Made by a program: the position numbers and the translations under genes
Shown here: one piece after another, positions 6,981-43,953 of the stretch
How the letters are laid out: every line of letters begins with the position of its first letter
Position numbering within the stretch: the first letter of the stretch is position 1
Notes under the pieces: generated by a model
Seen by the model: the letters and a program-made list of their open reading frames with translations, nothing else
What the model was told of the DNA's origin: nothing
Databases searched by the model: none
Source: a virus
Length of the DNA: 43,953 nucleotides
Reading direction: 5' to 3' (one strand)
Virus genome (UHGV): UHGV-0199997

Positions 6981-8975
6981 ATGTCAAGCGGATGCGGTGA
7001 CGTTTTAAGCCTGGCGGATTTACAAACCGCCAAGAAACACCAGATTTTTGAAGCTGAGGTTATCACCGGCAAGTCCGGCGGTGTCGCTGGCGGTGCTGAT
7101 ATTGATTATGCGACCAATGCGGTTACAGGGCAGACCCAAAAGACACTACCTGCCGTGTTACGTGACGTGGGCTTCCGCCCGGCGGCATTTACGTTCGCCA
7201 CTGGAGGTACGCTGGGTGTTAATGACGCAGATTTAGCGGTTTTATGGCCTATTTCCGATGGTGGCGATGGTAACTATTACGCGTGGAAAGGCGCGCTGCC
7301 GAAGGTTGTGCCTGCGGCGTCGACCCCTCTAACCACCGGCGGCGTTTCCGATGAGGCTTGGATGCCTGTGACAGAGGCCGCCTTACGTAGTGATTTAGCT
7401 TCCAGTAGTGGGGCTGGTATGATAGGGACTACCTCAGGCGCTACGGTGCAAGATACTATTAATCAAACAGGAACCCAGCAAAAGGATTTACATCCATTTG
7501 TACCAACAGGTTCTTTCGGTTCTGGTGCTTCTTTCACTTCTACACTTCAAGTATTCGAACATAATGGCGAATATTATTCATACAAAGGACCAATTTCACC
7601 AGGTTCTACAGTCCCGGCAACACCATCATCCGATGCAAACTGGAAAAAAGAACCCGTGTCTGACTATATTGAAAATTACGGCGGCGGCGTGCATGTTGCC
7701 GACCAAACACCCGCGATATTAAAAGCTATAGATGCTGGTGTACGACGCATTGTTCTACCCAAGGGTGAGCTTAGGATGTCACCTTGTACCATACCGGGAT
7801 ACACCCAAGGGCTAACTTTTGTAGGTCAAGGTGCTAACCAGGCGTACTCAGGTACTACAGTAATAAAACCGTTGAACGATGGTCAGAACTATATTTTTGG
7901 CTCTGGTGACACTAATGATGGGCAAGATAGTATTAAGTTTGAAAACATCCAGTTCGACGGTGAGTGGCGGTGCAACCACGCCATACTGCATACTCGTGGT
8001 GCCGGTTGGTACTACGAGAAGTTAACTGGCAAGAGATTCAATACGTGGTTTATCTACGACGGTCAAGGACTTGCCAGATTTAGAGATATTTATTGCGAAG
8101 CCACTGATGCATCAGATATCTCAATCCGTGCAACGGGGGGTGGCATACGGGTGTATAGCGACTCTGTCCTGGACACTGTGGAAGTGTACGGAGGAAGCTG
8201 CCCATTAAGGTTATCAGCCGGTGGCAATCGAGCTAGCAATATCTTTTGTAATGGAGGGTATGATATCGGCGCTATAGCTTTAGAGCCACAAGATACTTCA
8301 ACAAATCATATAAACACGGCGTTAAGTAATATATATATAGGTGAGAGTACTAATACATCAGGTGTAGCTATCCCAATTTTAGCACTGTATGGAAACTCCG
8401 TAAGAAAAGTAGAATCTGTGCAAATATCTAACGCTCATTTTGTTCATGCATCAACCACATTGAATACTAACATGACAGTTATAAGGGCTGATAAAGTTAA
8501 TGGTTTTGTTATGTCTTCTTTTGATGCACTTGCCATGGGAGAATACAGCACATCTAGCCGACGTACATATAACTTCCTTAATGCAACTAATTCTACATCT
8601 ATGTTATTTTCTGCTGGCAGTATTAGAGGCGTAAATAATAATCCAATAGTATTGGGTGATGGATGCTCATTGAGCATAGATGCAGTTGAGTTTAATGGCT
8701 GGGGTACAAACTCTGATTCTGGCACTGAAAACAAAGCCGCTATCAGAACCACATCCTCCGATGCAAGGTGCGTGATAGGCTCATCATGTAACTTTACCGC
8801 AAGTCAAACAGACTCATACGCCGTTTGTGCTTATAATGAGTTTACGGTTAGCGCATCGATACTTAACATAAACTATAGTAGTTCTACAATATTCTACCCT
8901 GCTAACGTTAATTACAGTTACATATATAAACGTCCCGGTGGTAAGATAACTTTAGTTAACACTTTTAGTGCGTAG
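6981..8975 (+). CDS. tailspike / tail fiber (receptor-binding protein), mosaic
   Basis: 664-aa ORF with RBS AAGAGGA; GC-rich N-terminal anchor domain followed by an AT-rich, Ser/Thr/Asn/Gly-rich C-terminal part; last gene of the tail operon, followed by a strong terminator. Confidence 0.7.
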   Translation: MSSGCGDVLSLADLQTAKKHQIFEAEVITGKSGGVAGGADIDYATNAVTGQTQKTLPAVLRDVGFRPAAFTFATGGTLGVNDADLAVLWPISDGGDGNYYAWKGALPKVVPAASTPLTTGGVSDEAWMPVTEAALRSDLASSSGAGMIGTTSGATVQDTINQTGTQQKDLHPFVPTGSFGSGASFTSTLQVFEHNGEYYSYKGPISPGSTVPATPSSDANWKKEPVSDYIENYGGGVHVADQTPAILKAIDAGVRRIVLPKGELRMSPCTIPGYTQGLTFVGQGANQAYSGTTVIKPLNDGQNYIFGSGDTNDGQDSIKFENIQFDGEWRCNHAILHTRGAGWYYEKLTGKRFNTWFIYDGQGLARFRDIYCEATDASDISIRATGGGIRVYSDSVLDTVEVYGGSCPLRLSAGGNRASNIFCNGGYDIGAIALEPQDTSTNHINTALSNIYIGESTNTSGVAIPILALYGNSVRKVESVQISNAHFVHASTTLNTNMTVIRADKVNGFVMSSFDALAMGEYSTSSRRTYNFLNATNSTSMLFSAGSIRGVNNNPIVLGDGCSLSIDAVEFNGWGTNSDSGTENKAAIRTTSSDARCVIGSSCNFTASQTDSYAVCAYNEFTVSASILNINYSSSTIFYPANVNYSYIYKRPGGKITLVNTFSA

Positions 8976-8979
8976 AAAT

Positions 8980-9005
8980 AAGGCCCCGAAAGGGGCCTTT
9001 TCTCT
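8980..9005. terminator. bidirectional rho-independent terminator
   Basis: AGGCCCC-GAAA-GGGGCCT stem-loop followed by TTTCTCT; sits between the convergent tailspike gene and the minus-strand replication operon. Confidence 0.7.
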
Positions 9006-15761: not shown

Positions 15762-15852
15762 CTTGATTTCTCGCTTTTAAGTTTCGTTTACTCCGGGAAC
15801 TGCCCGGCCAGTGGTTAGAAATATAATAGCTAACTATTCAGGTGTCAACACT

Positions 15853-17883: not shown

Positions 17884-17916
17884 TTGTTTCTCTCCTCTCG
17901 TTTGGTATGCACTAAC

Positions 17917-17935
17917 TATAATAGCTAACTATTCA
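17917..17935 (+). promoter_or_regulatory. palindromic operator-like element in a divergent promoter region
   Basis: TATAATAGCTAACTATTCA contains AATAG-N4-CTATT; a near copy lies at 15821-15840; sits between the divergent genes at 17883 (-) and 18009 (+). Confidence 0.35.
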
Positions 17936-21325: not shown

Positions 21326-21470
21326 TTGACTTTTACTAAGAAATATGCTAAGCTCGTCCTGAGCTTGTGAAGTATGAACAAGCGACCGCGGTGCGCGGCA
21401 GGCGAAACGAGCACGTCTCGACGTGTGGAGTGAGTCTCGCTGGCGCATTCGGAAGGGCCATAGTCTATTG
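21326..21470 (+). promoter_or_regulatory. promoter (TTGACT-N17-TAAGCT) plus conserved leader element, copy 1
   Basis: -35 at 21326-21331 and -10 at 21349-21354; 34-nt block identical to copy 2 at 21358-21391 containing a perfect hairpin GCTTGT-N9-ACAAGC; second conserved block at 21448-21470. Confidence 0.5.
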
Positions 21471-21541
21471 TTATTCCCGCCTAAGTATCTAAGTTACTGA
21501 TTTGACGTAGGTTAGAACCGCAAGCTCACTCACTCACTCTT

Positions 21542-21573
21542 GGTGCCTTCGGCACCCCGTTCGTTTCGTTTCG
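21542..21573 (+). terminator. hairpin with U-rich tail (weak terminator) closing the copy 1 leader
   Basis: GGTGCC-TTC-GGCACC followed by CCGTTCGTTTCGTTTCG. Confidence 0.35.
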
Positions 21574-21623
21574 CTCGCTACCCTATTACACGAAAGAATC
21601 ACAACGGCAACGTAACTATTCTC

Positions 21624-21659
21624 TTGCACACCCCAATATAATAGGATACTATTCACTTA
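21624..21659 (+). promoter_or_regulatory. conserved promoter element (TTGCAC-N17-TACTATTCACTTA)
   Basis: One of at least five near-identical ~36-bp elements, each 25-40 bp upstream of an RBS and start codon; this one precedes the gene at 21687. Confidence 0.5.
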
Positions 21660-21686
21660 TCGAAACGAGACAGAGGAGTGAGGGTT

Positions 21687-23143: not shown

Positions 23144-23150
23144 AATTTAC

Positions 23151-23186
23151 TTGCACGCTAAGATAGAATAGGCTACTATTCACTTA
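23151..23186 (+). promoter_or_regulatory. conserved promoter element (TTGCAC-N17-TACTATTCACTTA)
   Basis: Same element family as 21624-21659; precedes RBS GAGAGGAGAG and ATG 23211. Confidence 0.5.
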
Positions 23187-23210
23187 CACAAACGAGAGGA
23201 GAGACAGAAT

Positions 23211-28213: not shown

Positions 28214-28392
28214 TTGCGTTTTTGAAGGCACTTGATGCCGCAGGCAACCTGGTGTTTTGGCTGGCCTTTTTAGTTGTGCTGATAAAACAACCGACTTTGT
28301 TTAACAGTCTTCCTAGCCATCTGTGGTGGCCTATGTTTTTAGGCATGATTGTGTCAGGAGTGGCTGGTATCCTTTTGTGGTTTTTCAAATGA
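28210..28392 (+). CDS. small membrane protein (2 TM helices)
   Basis: ATGA overlap start; two hydrophobic helices (LVFWLAFLVVLI, MFLGMIVSGVAGILLWFF). Confidence 0.5.
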   Translation: MIAFLKALDAAGNLVFWLAFLVVLIKQPTLFNSLPSHLWWPMFLGMIVSGVAGILLWFFK

Positions 28393-29121: not shown

Positions 29122-30382
29122 TATCACGGCGACGGAGCCACAAGGCGCATTTCTAGGTATGCATTGCAAGTTCCCGGCATTCGTGGCAGGCTTCGGCACC
29201 GGGAAGTCAGAGGTTATGTGCAACTCTGCACTACTCGACAGCATGGAAGGTGGTAGCGATTCTATCATCGCCATGTACGAGCCTACCTATGACCTGGTGC
29301 GCCTCATCCTTGCACCGCGTATGGAAGAAAAGCTGACGGACTGGGGTATCCGATACAAATACAACAAGTCTGACAACATAATCTATACGTCATCCAGTCA
29401 ATTTGGGGATTTTGTTCTGCGTACATTGGATAATCCAGCACGAATCGTAGGTTACGAGTCCTTTCGCGCAAAAATCGACGAGTTGGACACCCTTAACATG
29501 GAACATGCTGAGCACGCGTGGAACAAAGTCATCGCCCGTAACCGCCAGTTGCCGCGGACATATAAACCTATTACGCCCAAACCGGCTAATACCGTTTCCG
29601 TGTTCACCACGCCGGAAGGATTCCGTTTCGTACATGACCGCTGGGTTGTTAAAAAGAATCCTGGCTACGAGATGATTCAGGCATCCACCCTGTCGAACCC
29701 GTTCCTGCCGGAAGATTATGTTCAGTCATTGCGCGATACCTACCCGGGTCAGTTGATTGACGCCTACATTAACGGCGAGTTTGTAAACCTCACGGCTGGG
29801 ACGGTCTACTACGCTTACGACCGCAGGAAAAATAGTAGTCGTGAAACAATCAAGCCTGGCGAGACTCTGTATATTGGGCAGGACTTTAACGTAGGCCACA
29901 TGGCGAGCACAGTTTACGTGCAACGCGGGAAGGTGTGGCACGCTGTCGCCGAGTTGGTTGATATGTTCGATACCCCCGATGTAGTGCGGGCTATAACCGA
30001 GCGATGGAAAAGTAAGGGTCACTATATCGTTATGTACCCGGACGCCAGCGGCAAAAACCGTAAAAGCAACAACGCCAGTACCTCAGACATCGCCCAGCTA
30101 CAGCAGGCCGGTTTCGAAGTACGCGCTAAATCGACAAACCCACCGGTTAAAGACCGCGTATCTGCGATGAATAAGGCGCTTGAATCTGGTATGGTCATGA
30201 TTAACGAACAGGCTTGCCCAGTTACGGCGCGATGCCTGGAGCAGCAAGCCTACGACAAGAACGGCGAACCGGATAAATCCGGGGGCGTGGACCACCAGAA
30301 TGATGGAACCACATACCCTATCGCGTACGAAATGCCGATTCGCAAACCAGTTATTAACGTCCCGGTGACTTTCGCACTTTAA
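29111..30382 (+). CDS. terminase large subunit
   Basis: Walker A-like AGFGTGKS, Walker B-like IDELD, C-terminal RNase H-like nuclease region (GQDFN...D). Confidence 0.9.
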   Translation: MNVNITATEPQGAFLGMHCKFPAFVAGFGTGKSEVMCNSALLDSMEGGSDSIIAMYEPTYDLVRLILAPRMEEKLTDWGIRYKYNKSDNIIYTSSSQFGDFVLRTLDNPARIVGYESFRAKIDELDTLNMEHAEHAWNKVIARNRQLPRTYKPITPKPANTVSVFTTPEGFRFVHDRWVVKKNPGYEMIQASTLSNPFLPEDYVQSLRDTYPGQLIDAYINGEFVNLTAGTVYYAYDRRKNSSRETIKPGETLYIGQDFNVGHMASTVYVQRGKVWHAVAELVDMFDTPDVVRAITERWKSKGHYIVMYPDASGKNRKSNNASTSDIAQLQQAGFEVRAKSTNPPVKDRVSAMNKALESGMVMINEQACPVTARCLEQQAYDKNGEPDKSGGVDHQNDGTTYPIAYEMPIRKPVINVPVTFAL

Positions 30383-32109: not shown

Positions 32110-32145
32110 TAACCGAATAGTACCCTATTATATTGGTGTCTGCAA
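32110..32145 (-). promoter_or_regulatory. conserved promoter element (TTGCAG-N17-TACTATTC), minus orientation
   Basis: Member of the ~36-bp element family; drives the 61-aa minus-strand gene. Confidence 0.5.
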
Positions 32146-32189
32146 ATATTATTTTTATGCGTTACACTGGCGATACTACAGGAGGGCTT

Positions 32190-33697: not shown

Positions 33698-33727
33698 AAG
33701 GCCCCTTATGGGGCCTTAATTTTATTT
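33698..33727. terminator. bidirectional rho-independent terminator
   Basis: AAGGCCCC-TTAT-GGGGCCTT followed by AATTTTATTT; shared by the convergent genes 33233-33694 (+) and 33722-34243 (-). Confidence 0.65.
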
Positions 33728-34243: not shown

Positions 34244-34264
34244 TTTAACTCCTCCTCGTTTCGA

Positions 34265-34300
34265 TAACTGAATAGTACCCTATTATGTTGGGGTGTGCAA
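34265..34300 (-). promoter_or_regulatory. conserved promoter element (TTGCAC-N17-TACTATTCAGTTA), minus orientation
   Basis: Member of the element family; immediately upstream of the DnaN-like gene. Confidence 0.5.
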
Positions 34301-34366: not shown

Positions 34367-34509
34367 TTGACTTTTCACTAAAAATATGCTAAGCTCCACC
34401 TGAGCTTGTGAAGTATGAACAAGCGACCGCGGCGCGGGCAGGTAACGGAGCGGGACGTAAGTCCTGAGTGTAGTTACGCTGACGCGTTCGGAAGGGCCAT
34501 ACTCTATTG
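34367..34509 (+). promoter_or_regulatory. promoter (TTGACT-N17-TAAGCT) plus conserved leader element, copy 2
   Basis: -35 at 34367-34372 and -10 at 34390-34395; conserved blocks at 34399-34432 and 34487-34509 are identical or near-identical to copy 1. Confidence 0.5.
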
Positions 34510-34575
34510 CTTGTGTAAAAAGTAACTGGTTTACTGAGATTACGCCGTTTCTATGTTTAAATGATAAGGACTAGC

Positions 34576-34602
34576 GCCCCGCTTTATGGCGGGGCTTTAC
34601 TT
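34576..34602 (+). terminator. hairpin terminator between the copy 2 leader and the spanin gene
   Basis: GCCCCGC-TTTATG-GCGGGGC followed by TTTACTT, about 20 nt upstream of the spanin RBS. Confidence 0.45.
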
Positions 34603-34619
34603 ATCGAGAAAGGAGAAAC

Positions 34620-35006
34620 ATGAATCTTAAAGCAACTGTCGTAGCGGGAGCATGTTTCATCATCCTGGCTTACGCACACGGCATCCACCAGTATCGCAGC
34701 GGCTGGCACGAAGGCCGGGCGAATCTCGTTTCGCAGCAACAGCAGAAAGCACAAGCTGAGTTAGCGAAGAAAACACAACGGCAGCAGCAGGATGAATCAA
34801 AGGCCGCAGCCGCTGACAACGAAGGCAAGACGAAATCAGAGGTGATTACCCGTGAAGTCGTTAAGTACATTAAAACGCCTGGCCGCAGCGTGTGCACTTT
34901 TGACCCTGAGCGCGTGCAGCTCAAGTCCCGCGCCGTCGCAAACGCAAATTCCATCCCCGGATATGACGATGATGCAGCCTCCGTGCAAACTGGCGCCGCC
35001 AAGTAG
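34620..35006 (+). CDS. i-spanin (Rz-like)
   Basis: N-terminal TM helix followed by a Q/A/K-rich coiled-coil periplasmic domain; contains an embedded +1-frame lipoprotein gene. Confidence 0.7.
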   Translation: MNLKATVVAGACFIILAYAHGIHQYRSGWHEGRANLVSQQQQKAQAELAKKTQRQQQDESKAAAADNEGKTKSEVITREVVKYIKTPGRSVCTFDPERVQLKSRAVANANSIPGYDDDAASVQTGAAK

Positions 35007-36966: not shown

Positions 36967-36995
36967 GAGAGGGACTTCGGTCCCTCTTTTCATTT
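36967..36995 (+). terminator. rho-independent terminator after the capsid gene
   Basis: AGAGGGAC-TTCG-GTCCCTCT followed by TTTCATTT. Confidence 0.7.
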
Positions 36996-41362: not shown

Positions 41363-41388
41363 AAGGCCCCTTTCGGGGCCTTTTTCTT
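41363..41388. terminator. bidirectional rho-independent terminator
   Basis: AAGGCCCC-TTTC-GGGGCCTT followed by TTTTTCTT; U tracts on both strands; shared with the convergent minus-strand cassette. Confidence 0.75.
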
Positions 41389-43809: not shown

Positions 43810-43845
43810 TAAGTGAATAGTACCCTATTATATTGGGGCGCGCAA
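43810..43845 (-). promoter_or_regulatory. conserved promoter element (TTGCGC-N17-TACTATTCACTTA), minus orientation
   Basis: Member of the element family; drives the four-gene minus-strand cassette. Confidence 0.5.
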
Positions 43846-43953
43846 GTAGTGTGCTAGAATAAGTTTGCGCCTAGTGTCGCACACGAAAAGCGGGTGGTTC
43901 CCGTCTGGCGCATTTATCGTTAACCTGTAACCTCTTAACCAAAGGATTAAAGA

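Follow-up and report, generated by a model that had tools for sequence, protein, structure and literature searches.

The locus described in this study raises the question why a phage should carry the same promoter and the same non-coding leader at two places of its genome, and how this leader would act on the genes that follow. The window, which denotes the entire stretch of 43,953 nucleotides (nt) that was analysed (UHGV virus genome UHGV-0199997), is the complete genome, about 44 kb in size, of a Kagunavirus (Guernseyvirinae) whose closest relative is Escherichia phage EcoPhCCP1. Our comparison provides good support for the view that the promoter-coupled leader, about 115 nt in length, constitutes an undescribed RNA family of Guernseyvirinae phages (Jersey/K1-type). 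The presence of a two-copy module had been proposed from the letters of the window and its open reading frames (in the following termed the sequence-only reading) and was substantiated by the exact recurrence of its conserved blocks. Both the 34-nt block CCTGAGCTTGTGAAGTATGAACAAGCGACCGCGG (21358-21391 and 34399-34432) and a second block TTCGGAAGGGCCATAnTCTATTG (21448-21470 and 34487-34509) match exactly twice, in each case on the + strand, and the 34-nt block had no match in 100 shuffles. The element extends from 21326 to 21470 in copy 1 and from 34367 to 34509 in copy 2, again on the + strand, and a repeat search recovered the same two places as 70-nt copies of 89% identity with TTGACT as first letters. 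The similarity between the copies starts at the -35 hexamer, extends over about 145 nt and is followed by a linker that is partly similar. No third copy was found in the window in a scan with the full covariance model and filters switched off.

Both elements open with a promoter whose assignment in the sequence-only reading (TTGACT, a spacer of 17 base pairs (bp) and TAAGCT) is correct in either copy (Table 1). Transcripts are predicted to start about 7-8 nt past the -10 hexamer in both copies, at about 21361-21362 in copy 1 and 34402-34403 in copy 2, which by spacing would place a G or A at the 5' end, immediately preceding the first hairpin of the leader (P1). Among about 90 distinct family sequences, the TG upstream of the -10 hexamer is invariant and the base that follows is any of C, A, G or T; within the hexamer T1, A2 and T6 are invariant, and the -35 hexamer varies slightly (TTGACT, TAGACT, TCGACT). 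Such conservation of the pattern TGnTAAGCT is expected of a sigma-70 promoter of the extended -10 type. The correspondence between conserved positions and those that would be functional in an extended -10 promoter of the host is well supported by this comparison. With only three of six positions shared between TAAGCT and TATAAT, the promoter had escaped a consensus scanner.

Compensatory changes and the architecture of the leader

The level at which the leader is conserved was addressed by covariation. A covariance model was built, to which 73 instances, 43 of them distinct, were aligned. In this alignment standard pairs occupy 94.1% of the pair cells, compared to 79.3% in shuffled controls and 29-40% with slid partners, and in 13 of the 28 pairs both partners have changed. 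None of 500 shuffles reached the covariation score of 0.378 (versus 0.133). The test for compensatory changes proposed in the sequence-only reading was thus clearly positive. Since this alignment was fitted to the model, the count was repeated on a plain MAFFT alignment, where the corresponding values are 95.2%, 88.5% and 28-40% with seven pairs changed on both sides, leading to the same conclusion. Two of the pairs are G-U without exception in the 42 distinct sequences that were scored there, which identifies the + strand as the strand of the RNA. The sequences of the helices P3 and P4 are almost wholly different between types and yet still paired, as illustrated by P4, which reads CGGGAC/GUCCUG in type A, GCACGU/ACGUGU in type B, GUGCC/GGCAC in type D, CGGUGC/GCACUG in type E and both GGGCGC/GCGCCC and GGGCGU/ACGCCC in type F. 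Finally, Cornellvirus-type leaders have the motifs ACCGCG and CGGAAGGG side by side, whereas a 65-nt hairpin separates them in other types, and a core that is contiguous in one group and split by a helix-closed insertion in another can only be explained by a function at the RNA level. That the leader is conserved as a non-coding RNA on the + strand, whose fold is under selection, is well supported by these sequence comparisons.

When folded unaided by energy minimization, both copies of the window adopt one architecture consisting of P1, a 66-nt hairpin composed of P2, P3 and P4 and an unpaired tail AAGGGCCAUAnUCUAUUG. P1, which had been described as a perfect hairpin GCTTGT-N9-ACAAGC, was confirmed at 21363-21383 and 34404-34424; in its place SE2-type leaders contain the unrelated hairpin ACGCU-UUC-AGCGU and Cornellvirus leaders GUUC-UAC-GAAC. 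In P2, CCG-C-GGnGCG is paired with CGCnUU-CGG over both copies (CCG-C-GGUGCG with CGCAUU-CGG in copy 1). P3 pairs CAG-G-CGAAAC with GUCUCG-CUG in copy 1 and CAG-GUAAC with GUUAC-G-CUG in copy 2. P4 is formed between 21411-21416 and 21421-21426 with the loop CUCG in copy 1, and between CGGGAC and GUCCUG with the loop GUAA in copy 2. The asymmetric internal loop shows GA on the 5' and GGAGUGA on the 3' side in copy 1 and GGAG and AGUGUA in copy 2, with AGUGUA being kept across types A to E. The conserved core of the RNA comprises ACCGCG on the 5' side and CGGAAGGGCC together with a U-rich block on the 3' side, of which CGGAAGGG is retained even in the leaders of Cornellvirus and phiEap-2. The base of the long hairpin joins both halves of this core, and its top varies freely. 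When folded alone, five of the six types reach the same architecture; the minimum-energy fold of the SE2-type differs from the consensus, which fits this type only via the model alignment. For most types the thermodynamic z-scores are inconspicuous (-0.5 to -1.6, with -3.9 for type D), and the case thus rests on covariation and comparison instead of energy. Two further pairings were rejected: a pseudoknot between the loop of P1 (AGUAUG) and the tail (CAUACU), with 85% of cells paired, and a hairpin P5 in the tail (UUCGG/CCAUA), with 75%, both stay at the level of shuffles, the former without double changes.

Table 1. Positions of the two leader copies, their parts and nearby regulatory sites in the window
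Feature	Coordinates	Strand	Details
Promoter, copy 1	21326-21354	+	-35 TTGACT 21326-21331, 17-nt spacer, TG 21346-21347, -10 TAAGCT 21349-21354
P1 hairpin, copy 1	21363-21383	+	GCUUGU / 9-nt loop / ACAAGC, 6 bp, at the predicted 5' terminus; minimum-energy fold
Long irregular hairpin P2-P3-P4, copy 1	21386-21452	+	minimum-energy fold, consensus fold, pair counts
Conserved 3' tail, copy 1	21453-21470	+	AAGGGCCAUAGUCUAUUG: purine-rich run, then U-rich block
Weak terminator-like hairpin	21542-21573 (hairpin 21542-21556)	+	GGUGCC-UUC-GGCACC, interrupted U tail CCGTTCGTTT; marginal in terminator scan
Second, unrelated promoter	21624-21652	+	TTGCAC, 17 nt, TACTAT, with palindrome AATAG-N4-CTATT; not part of the RNA
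Inverted repeat TTATTCC-N16-GGAATAA	34323-34353	none	centre about 62 bp upstream of the predicted late start; copy 2 only
Promoter, copy 2	34367-34395	+	-35 TTGACT 34367-34372, 17-nt spacer, TG 34387-34388, TAAGCT 34390-34395
P1 hairpin, copy 2	34404-34424	+	minimum-energy fold
Long hairpin P2-P3-P4, copy 2	34427-34491	+	minimum-energy fold, pair counts
Conserved tail, copy 2	34492-34509	+	AAGGGCCAUACUCUAUUG
Terminator-like hairpin	34576-34605 (hairpin 34576-34595)	+	GCCCCGC-UUUAU-GGCGGGGC, then UUUACUUAUC; top terminator score of the region

The described covariation bears immediately on the proposal that the leader is a site in DNA, lying within the initially transcribed region, to which a repressor or an antiterminator of the Q type would bind and whose fold as RNA would be incidental. 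The location immediately downstream of the promoter and the palindromes CCGCGG and ACCGCGGT within the invariant block are compatible with such a site. The leader of the late operon in the window also shares its arrangement with PR'-qut-tR' (6S RNA) of phage lambda and its protein Q, where a constitutive-looking promoter is followed by a leader of about 200 nt and a terminator preceding a long late operon. However, the qut site of lambda is a DNA element that requires Q, whereas conservation in the family tracks RNA pairing as manifested in compensatory changes and invariant G-U pairs, no Q-like protein is found among the 20 open reading frames scanned, and the terminator is absent from most members. 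Conservation of the qut type, in which the DNA would keep a Q-binding element and a -10-like pause site, was not detected either: a -10-like hexamer is possibly carried by P1, but SE2-type and Cornellvirus leaders lack this sequence. In light of the split of the conserved halves by 65 bp in some types, a DNA-level site, which is largely refuted by covariation, appears highly improbable. A leader peptide was also rejected: as already noted in the sequence-only reading, the candidate peptides of the two copies (ATG at 21373 and 34414) diverge at codon 7, and the frames are absent from other family members, with types D, F and G lacking the ATG. A frame starting from AUU after the tail is similar only among closely related early copies.

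Distribution of the family and its two positions

Relatives were collected from phages in GenBank, from IMG/VR and from metagenomes, and group into six sequence types. Based on the capsid protein, the phage collection contains about 464 records of close relatives. RNA types A to E were found in 181 records at 224 places, which corresponds to about 43 genomes with two copies, and type F, the late leader of SE2-like Jerseyviruses, in 269 records at one place each. With a late copy in about 450 of the approximately 464 records of related phages and an early copy in about 43, the former is near-universal and the latter a feature of a subclade. The late position is always the head of the operon encoding spanin, scaffold, capsid and tail tube. 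In the window, where genes were assigned by comparison with annotated relatives, copy 2 is located upstream of the spanin gene (34620), followed by the genes for scaffold, major capsid, head-completion and tail-tube proteins up to 41358. Copy 1 resides between leftward replication genes (a helix-turn-helix gene and a helicase-primase) and rightward early genes starting at 21678. The placement in front of an early operon, which the sequence-only reading had assigned to the module, thus holds for copy 1, whereas copy 2 is the leader of the late structural operon. A duplication of the module together with its promoter to a place upstream of the early operon, in a single subclade to which the window belongs, is well supported, and the duplicated unit begins exactly at the -35 hexamer.

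The leader is more conserved than the genes in its vicinity, with 94-100% identity between the Kagunavirus of the window and the Jerseyvirus skrot, compared to 66-88% in neighbouring genes. This identity across genera could reflect selection, recent exchange or both. In some genomes early-type cores are found at the late position, as illustrated by E-type cores with the flanks of a late copy in two loci (L090, 2185-2337; L015, 1575-1727), which points to recombination or gene conversion between the copies. In the phage K1ind3 (L003, 36420-36560), the place of copy 1 is occupied by a different promoter (TTGACA, 16 nt, TAAAAT) and a different leader, and the same locus contains an inverted copy of the terminator hairpin of the late leader (AGCCCCGCCATAAAGCGGGGCGCT).

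At the margins of the family, the RNA model finds no match in the late leaders of Cornellvirus FSL SP-031, phiEap-2 and Hafnia TS33. Inspected by eye, these three leaders display the same upstream inverted repeat, an extended -10 motif (TGATAACCT), a small 5' hairpin and a variable long hairpin with covarying stems, and their core ACCGCGCGGAAGGG forms one contiguous stretch, whereas the long hairpin is inserted inside it in types A to F. The late operon of Salmonella phage Shemara (L165, 100-475) is preceded by a different leader, which contains several hairpins capped by GNRA loops and has only GGGGAUAGUCUAUU in common with the family, suggesting modular evolution around this block.

Beyond these phages, a scan of metagenomes with a split pattern of 23 bases returned 41 loci, all of known types, and scans of IMG/VR recovered only the same clade besides three chance matches. 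Nothing similar to the leader was found in 5,426 complete genomes of E. coli, and the element is thus neither a mimic of a host sequence nor part of a prophage. In Rfam 15, no family matches at its gathering score in the whole window, and the two leaders and the SE2 leader give only chance matches below threshold (at most 20.7 bits compared to gathering scores of 33-70); put is not an Rfam family. The element is not described in the searchable literature, where one paper on RNA sequencing of a Kagunavirus reports genes only.

Proposed control of elongation and competing explanations

In the late operon, between 34620 and 41358, no promoter-like site with at least 10 of 12 matches was found on the + strand, and the scan for terminators, which identified terminator-like sites at 21542, 22881, 34576 and 36967, places two of them in the path of the polymerase. 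The first ends 14 nt upstream of the start codon of the spanin gene, and the second (36967-36988), with a UUCG loop, follows immediately after the major capsid gene. Polymerases from the promoter at 34367 would thus, as deduced from these scans, encounter no fewer than two hairpins that have to be passed for the operon to be expressed. Proteins of an antiterminator family (Q- or N-like) were not found in PHROGs scans of 20 open reading frames from the early and nin-like regions, which revealed only two helix-turn-helix regulators. Because read-through appears obligatory and no protein antiterminator was found among these frames, we rank first, if only as a tentative proposal, a cis-acting leader coupled to its promoter that would control elongation by the host RNA polymerase. 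Action in cis on the transcript that the RNA begins is proposed because promoter and RNA move as one cassette, junction and tail are conserved, the tips of the helices are free to vary and no other promoter of the operon was found. The folded core would engage the transcribing host polymerase, either directly or via a host or phage factor, and polymerases from this promoter would then pass the hairpin at 34576-34595 and the terminator after the capsid gene, with the consequence that the whole late operon could be transcribed from one promoter. Such processive antitermination or anti-pausing may be direct, as in put, or assisted by factors, as in nut; the likeness would be one of outcome, since the RNA is related neither to HK022 put nor to lambda nut.

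Among the closest analogues are putL and putR of phage HK022. The put RNAs suppress pausing and termination without factors via the zinc-binding domain of the beta' subunit. Like the described element, putL and putR are promoter-proximal non-coding stem-loop RNAs present in two copies in two operons, whose stems covary between the copies, and both phages use the host polymerase throughout. The placement of the RNA in the window is equally put-like, since it is promoter-proximal in the predicted transcript, occurs once per operon and is followed by terminator-like sites. In contrast, put comprises about 73 nt with two long stems arranged in a V shape and a triplex (PMC9378689), whereas the family RNA combines a short 5' hairpin, a 66-nt hairpin of three segments and an unpaired conserved tail, and its long hairpin can be lost. 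There is no similarity in sequence or model: putL (about 28243-28267) and putR (about 29494-29518) were located in the HK022 genome, where the RNA model finds no match up to an E-value of 10. With nut sites and the leaders of rrn operons, which rely on a BoxB hairpin, BoxA and Nus factors, the family shares a hairpin followed by an unpaired block rich in U and C (CUCUAUUG, UCUUUUAC) in an untranslated leader; its blocks agree with BoxA in no more than about 6-8 of 12-13 positions and, unlike BoxB, the loops of its hairpins are not conserved. The conAn element of Gram-positive conjugative elements (PMC8191782) similarly resides at the head of a long operon with internal terminators but requires a dedicated small protein and belongs to another host group and sequence family, whereas no partner gene was identified for the RNA of the window. 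In the comparisons that could be run with put, lambda PR', nut/rrn and 5' stabilisers, the element thus agrees with none of them except in position and layout, and of the resemblance to put and qut proposed in the sequence-only reading only the positional part stands; the RNA model has no match in HK022, and the covariation speaks against a qut-type site in DNA. A more specific version of control of elongation is viewed as doubtful. In this version, the RNA would join put as the second class of antiterminator RNA that modifies the polymerase, with a structure of its own, and would be a portable promoter-plus-RNA cassette by which virulent siphoviruses without an antiterminator protein render the polymerase of E. 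coli or Salmonella terminator-resistant, alone or with host factors only.

Several observations weigh against control of elongation in general. A BoxA (GCUCUUUAACAA or CGCUCUUA) with up to three mismatches is found neither in 21355-21680 nor in 34396-34620, and the 40 matches in the genome compare to 38.7 expected by chance. An intrinsic terminator immediately after the RNA is not conserved across the family: it is found in the types of the window, whereas the scan identifies no site in the SE2 late, the fFiEco03 early (copy 1) and the Cornellvirus FSL SP-031 leaders, which contain GC-rich hairpins without a U tract, the SE2-type with a different hairpin at the position of the late terminator. 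The proposed layout of promoter, leader of about 200 nt and terminator consequently holds for the types of the window and fails in the SE2-type, the fFiEco03-type and Cornellvirus; even in copy 1 the hairpin with a U-rich tail that had been described is present, but its tail is interrupted, the scan passes it only marginally, and it is not conserved among other early-copy types. Terminators after the capsid gene are common in phages without an antitermination system. K1ind3-type phages manage without the module in front of the same early operon, and the Jersey strain UPWr_S1 (L101, MT588083, 1558-1625) lacks the entire long hairpin due to a deletion between two ACCGCG repeats that leaves promoter, P1, core and tail in place and is natural unless it reflects an assembly error. 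The identity of the leader across genera may also stem in part from recombination, the leader types being mosaic.

Some of these properties are readily accommodated if the RNA instead serves as a stabiliser or processing element at the 5' end of the mRNA, providing a long-lived and abundant late message. In this case P1 would block decay that depends on the 5' end, the long hairpin would act as RNase III site as in phage T7, and the purine-rich CGGAAGGG, as in STAB-SD, would retain a 30S ribosomal subunit or a protein by which the leader is shielded. The principles of protection by 5' hairpins, of T7 RNase III sites and of STAB-SD are established. With respect to the hairpin of ompA, the RNase III sites of T7 and STAB-SD of cryIIIA, the family shares a hairpin at the extreme 5' end, an interrupted helix of about two turns (about 23 bp with internal loops, which has the length required for an RNase III site) and a Shine-Dalgarno-like run far upstream of start codons. 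A hairpin is kept at the predicted start although its sequence differs fully (GCUUGU/ACAAGC, ACGCU/AGCGU, GUUC/GAAC), and the purine-rich motif is Shine-Dalgarno-like in all types (GGAAGGG, GGGAGG, GAGAGG). A stabiliser would also account for promoter and RNA travelling together and for the tolerance of variation and deletion at the top of the long hairpin, and it does not require a leader terminator, which fits its absence in SE2, fFiEco03 and Cornellvirus. However, known stabilisers and processing sites contain little conserved sequence and would not need the approximately 25 near-invariant nucleotides in unpaired and junction regions of the family RNA, including AGUGUA in types A to E, and T7 RNase III sites are located between genes and not only after promoters. 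We regard this explanation as tentative as well and as almost as likely as control of elongation.

The anatomy of a conserved junction core surrounded by variable peripheral helices is, on the other hand, common to aptamers and protein-binding RNAs, and in every type the first late gene has a GC-rich hairpin right before its ribosome-binding site. Both features would suit an attenuator resembling a riboswitch or the leaders of L4 and S10, where the core would bind a ligand or protein, and the downstream hairpin would terminate transcription or block the ribosome-binding site of the spanin gene to time late expression. This assignment appears unlikely, as the hairpin lies about 65 nt away from the conserved RNA without any conserved alternative pairing between them, most types lack a terminator-like site, no Rfam family matches, and the same RNA precedes the early operon, where an unrelated sequence and a second promoter follow.

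The terminator-like sites located about 195-205 nt downstream of the promoters in both copies of the window, and the independent promoter for the genes following copy 1, could alternatively indicate one or two genes for a small RNA of about 200 nt that ends at the leader hairpin and acts in trans, with its unpaired tail or the loop of P1 directed at host or phage targets or titrating a protein. The second copy would raise its dose. StxS, which originates from the PR' leader of Stx phages, provides a precedent. The absence of a terminator in most members of the family and of another recognisable promoter for the capsid operon, which makes read-through obligatory, argue against such a product, and targets complementary to the tail were found in the phage at chance level only; E. 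coli genomes lack leader-like sequences, a comparison in which host targets complementary to the leader were not screened. We consider a trans-acting RNA still less probable than an attenuator.

Surrounding sites and implications for Guernseyvirinae phages

The regions surrounding both copies contain additional regulatory signals. The inverted repeat upstream of the late promoter (Table 1) occurs once in the genome, is kept at this position in SE2, FSL SP-031 and phiEap-2 and may be the site of an activator or repressor. Between the leader of copy 1 and the first early gene, the second promoter listed in Table 1 belongs to a repeat family with at least eight sites (cTTGCAC, 17 nt, TACTAT), among them those on the + strand at 15819-15840, 17914-17935, 21624-21655 and 23148-23193 and on the - strand at 32110-32148, 34255-34300 and 43810-43848. 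In these promoters the palindrome AATAG-N4-CTATT overlaps the -10 hexamer, and the sites precede early genes, a gene for a DicA-like repressor and several leftward genes, which probably makes them a group of promoters under repressor control. On the - strand, a promoter-like match (TTCACA, 18 nt, CATATT; 9 of 12 positions) lies within both copies (21342-21371 and 34383-34412); since it overlaps the conserved block it is found twice, and it is probably incidental, as the leftward genes seem to be served by promoters of their own. A hint from the GC skew of an origin of replication at copy 1 was discarded, because the minimum near 21 kb merely tracks gene orientation.

Immediately 5' of the hairpin of copy 1, a (CTCA)n repeat (21527-21541) contains three units in the window and six in locus L089 and is thus variable in length between phages. 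Three near-identical bidirectional terminators (AAGGCCCC...GGGGCCTT) are found at operon ends (41363-41382, 33698-33717 and 8973-9004). Within 43833-43953, the tail operon has its own candidate for an extended -10 promoter (43833-43860; TTGGGG, 16 nt, TGcTAGAAT) and, downstream of it, a structured leader about 90 nt in length that ends in CCUCUUAACCAA, with three mismatches to BoxA. This leader is unrelated to the RNA family, and the full-model scan with filters off ruled it out (43866-43953) as a member.

Kagunaviruses and Jerseyviruses are among the phages most frequently isolated for therapy against E. coli K1, urinary tract infections and Salmonella, with several hundred genomes available. 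In nearly all of them, an RNA that is more conserved than the genes next to it is found at the single entry point to the operon for capsid and tail tube, which bears on how late transcription is scheduled and sustained with the host polymerase alone. If the RNA modifies RNA polymerase, it would be the second class of RNA known to do so without a dedicated protein and would offer a compact part for synthetic biology. If it instead acts as a stabiliser or processing signal, it would explain the high late expression and give a handle for the engineering of these phages. In either case, the study has defined a new RNA family that comprises six to seven sequence types, is described by a covariance model and includes a deletion variant from nature.

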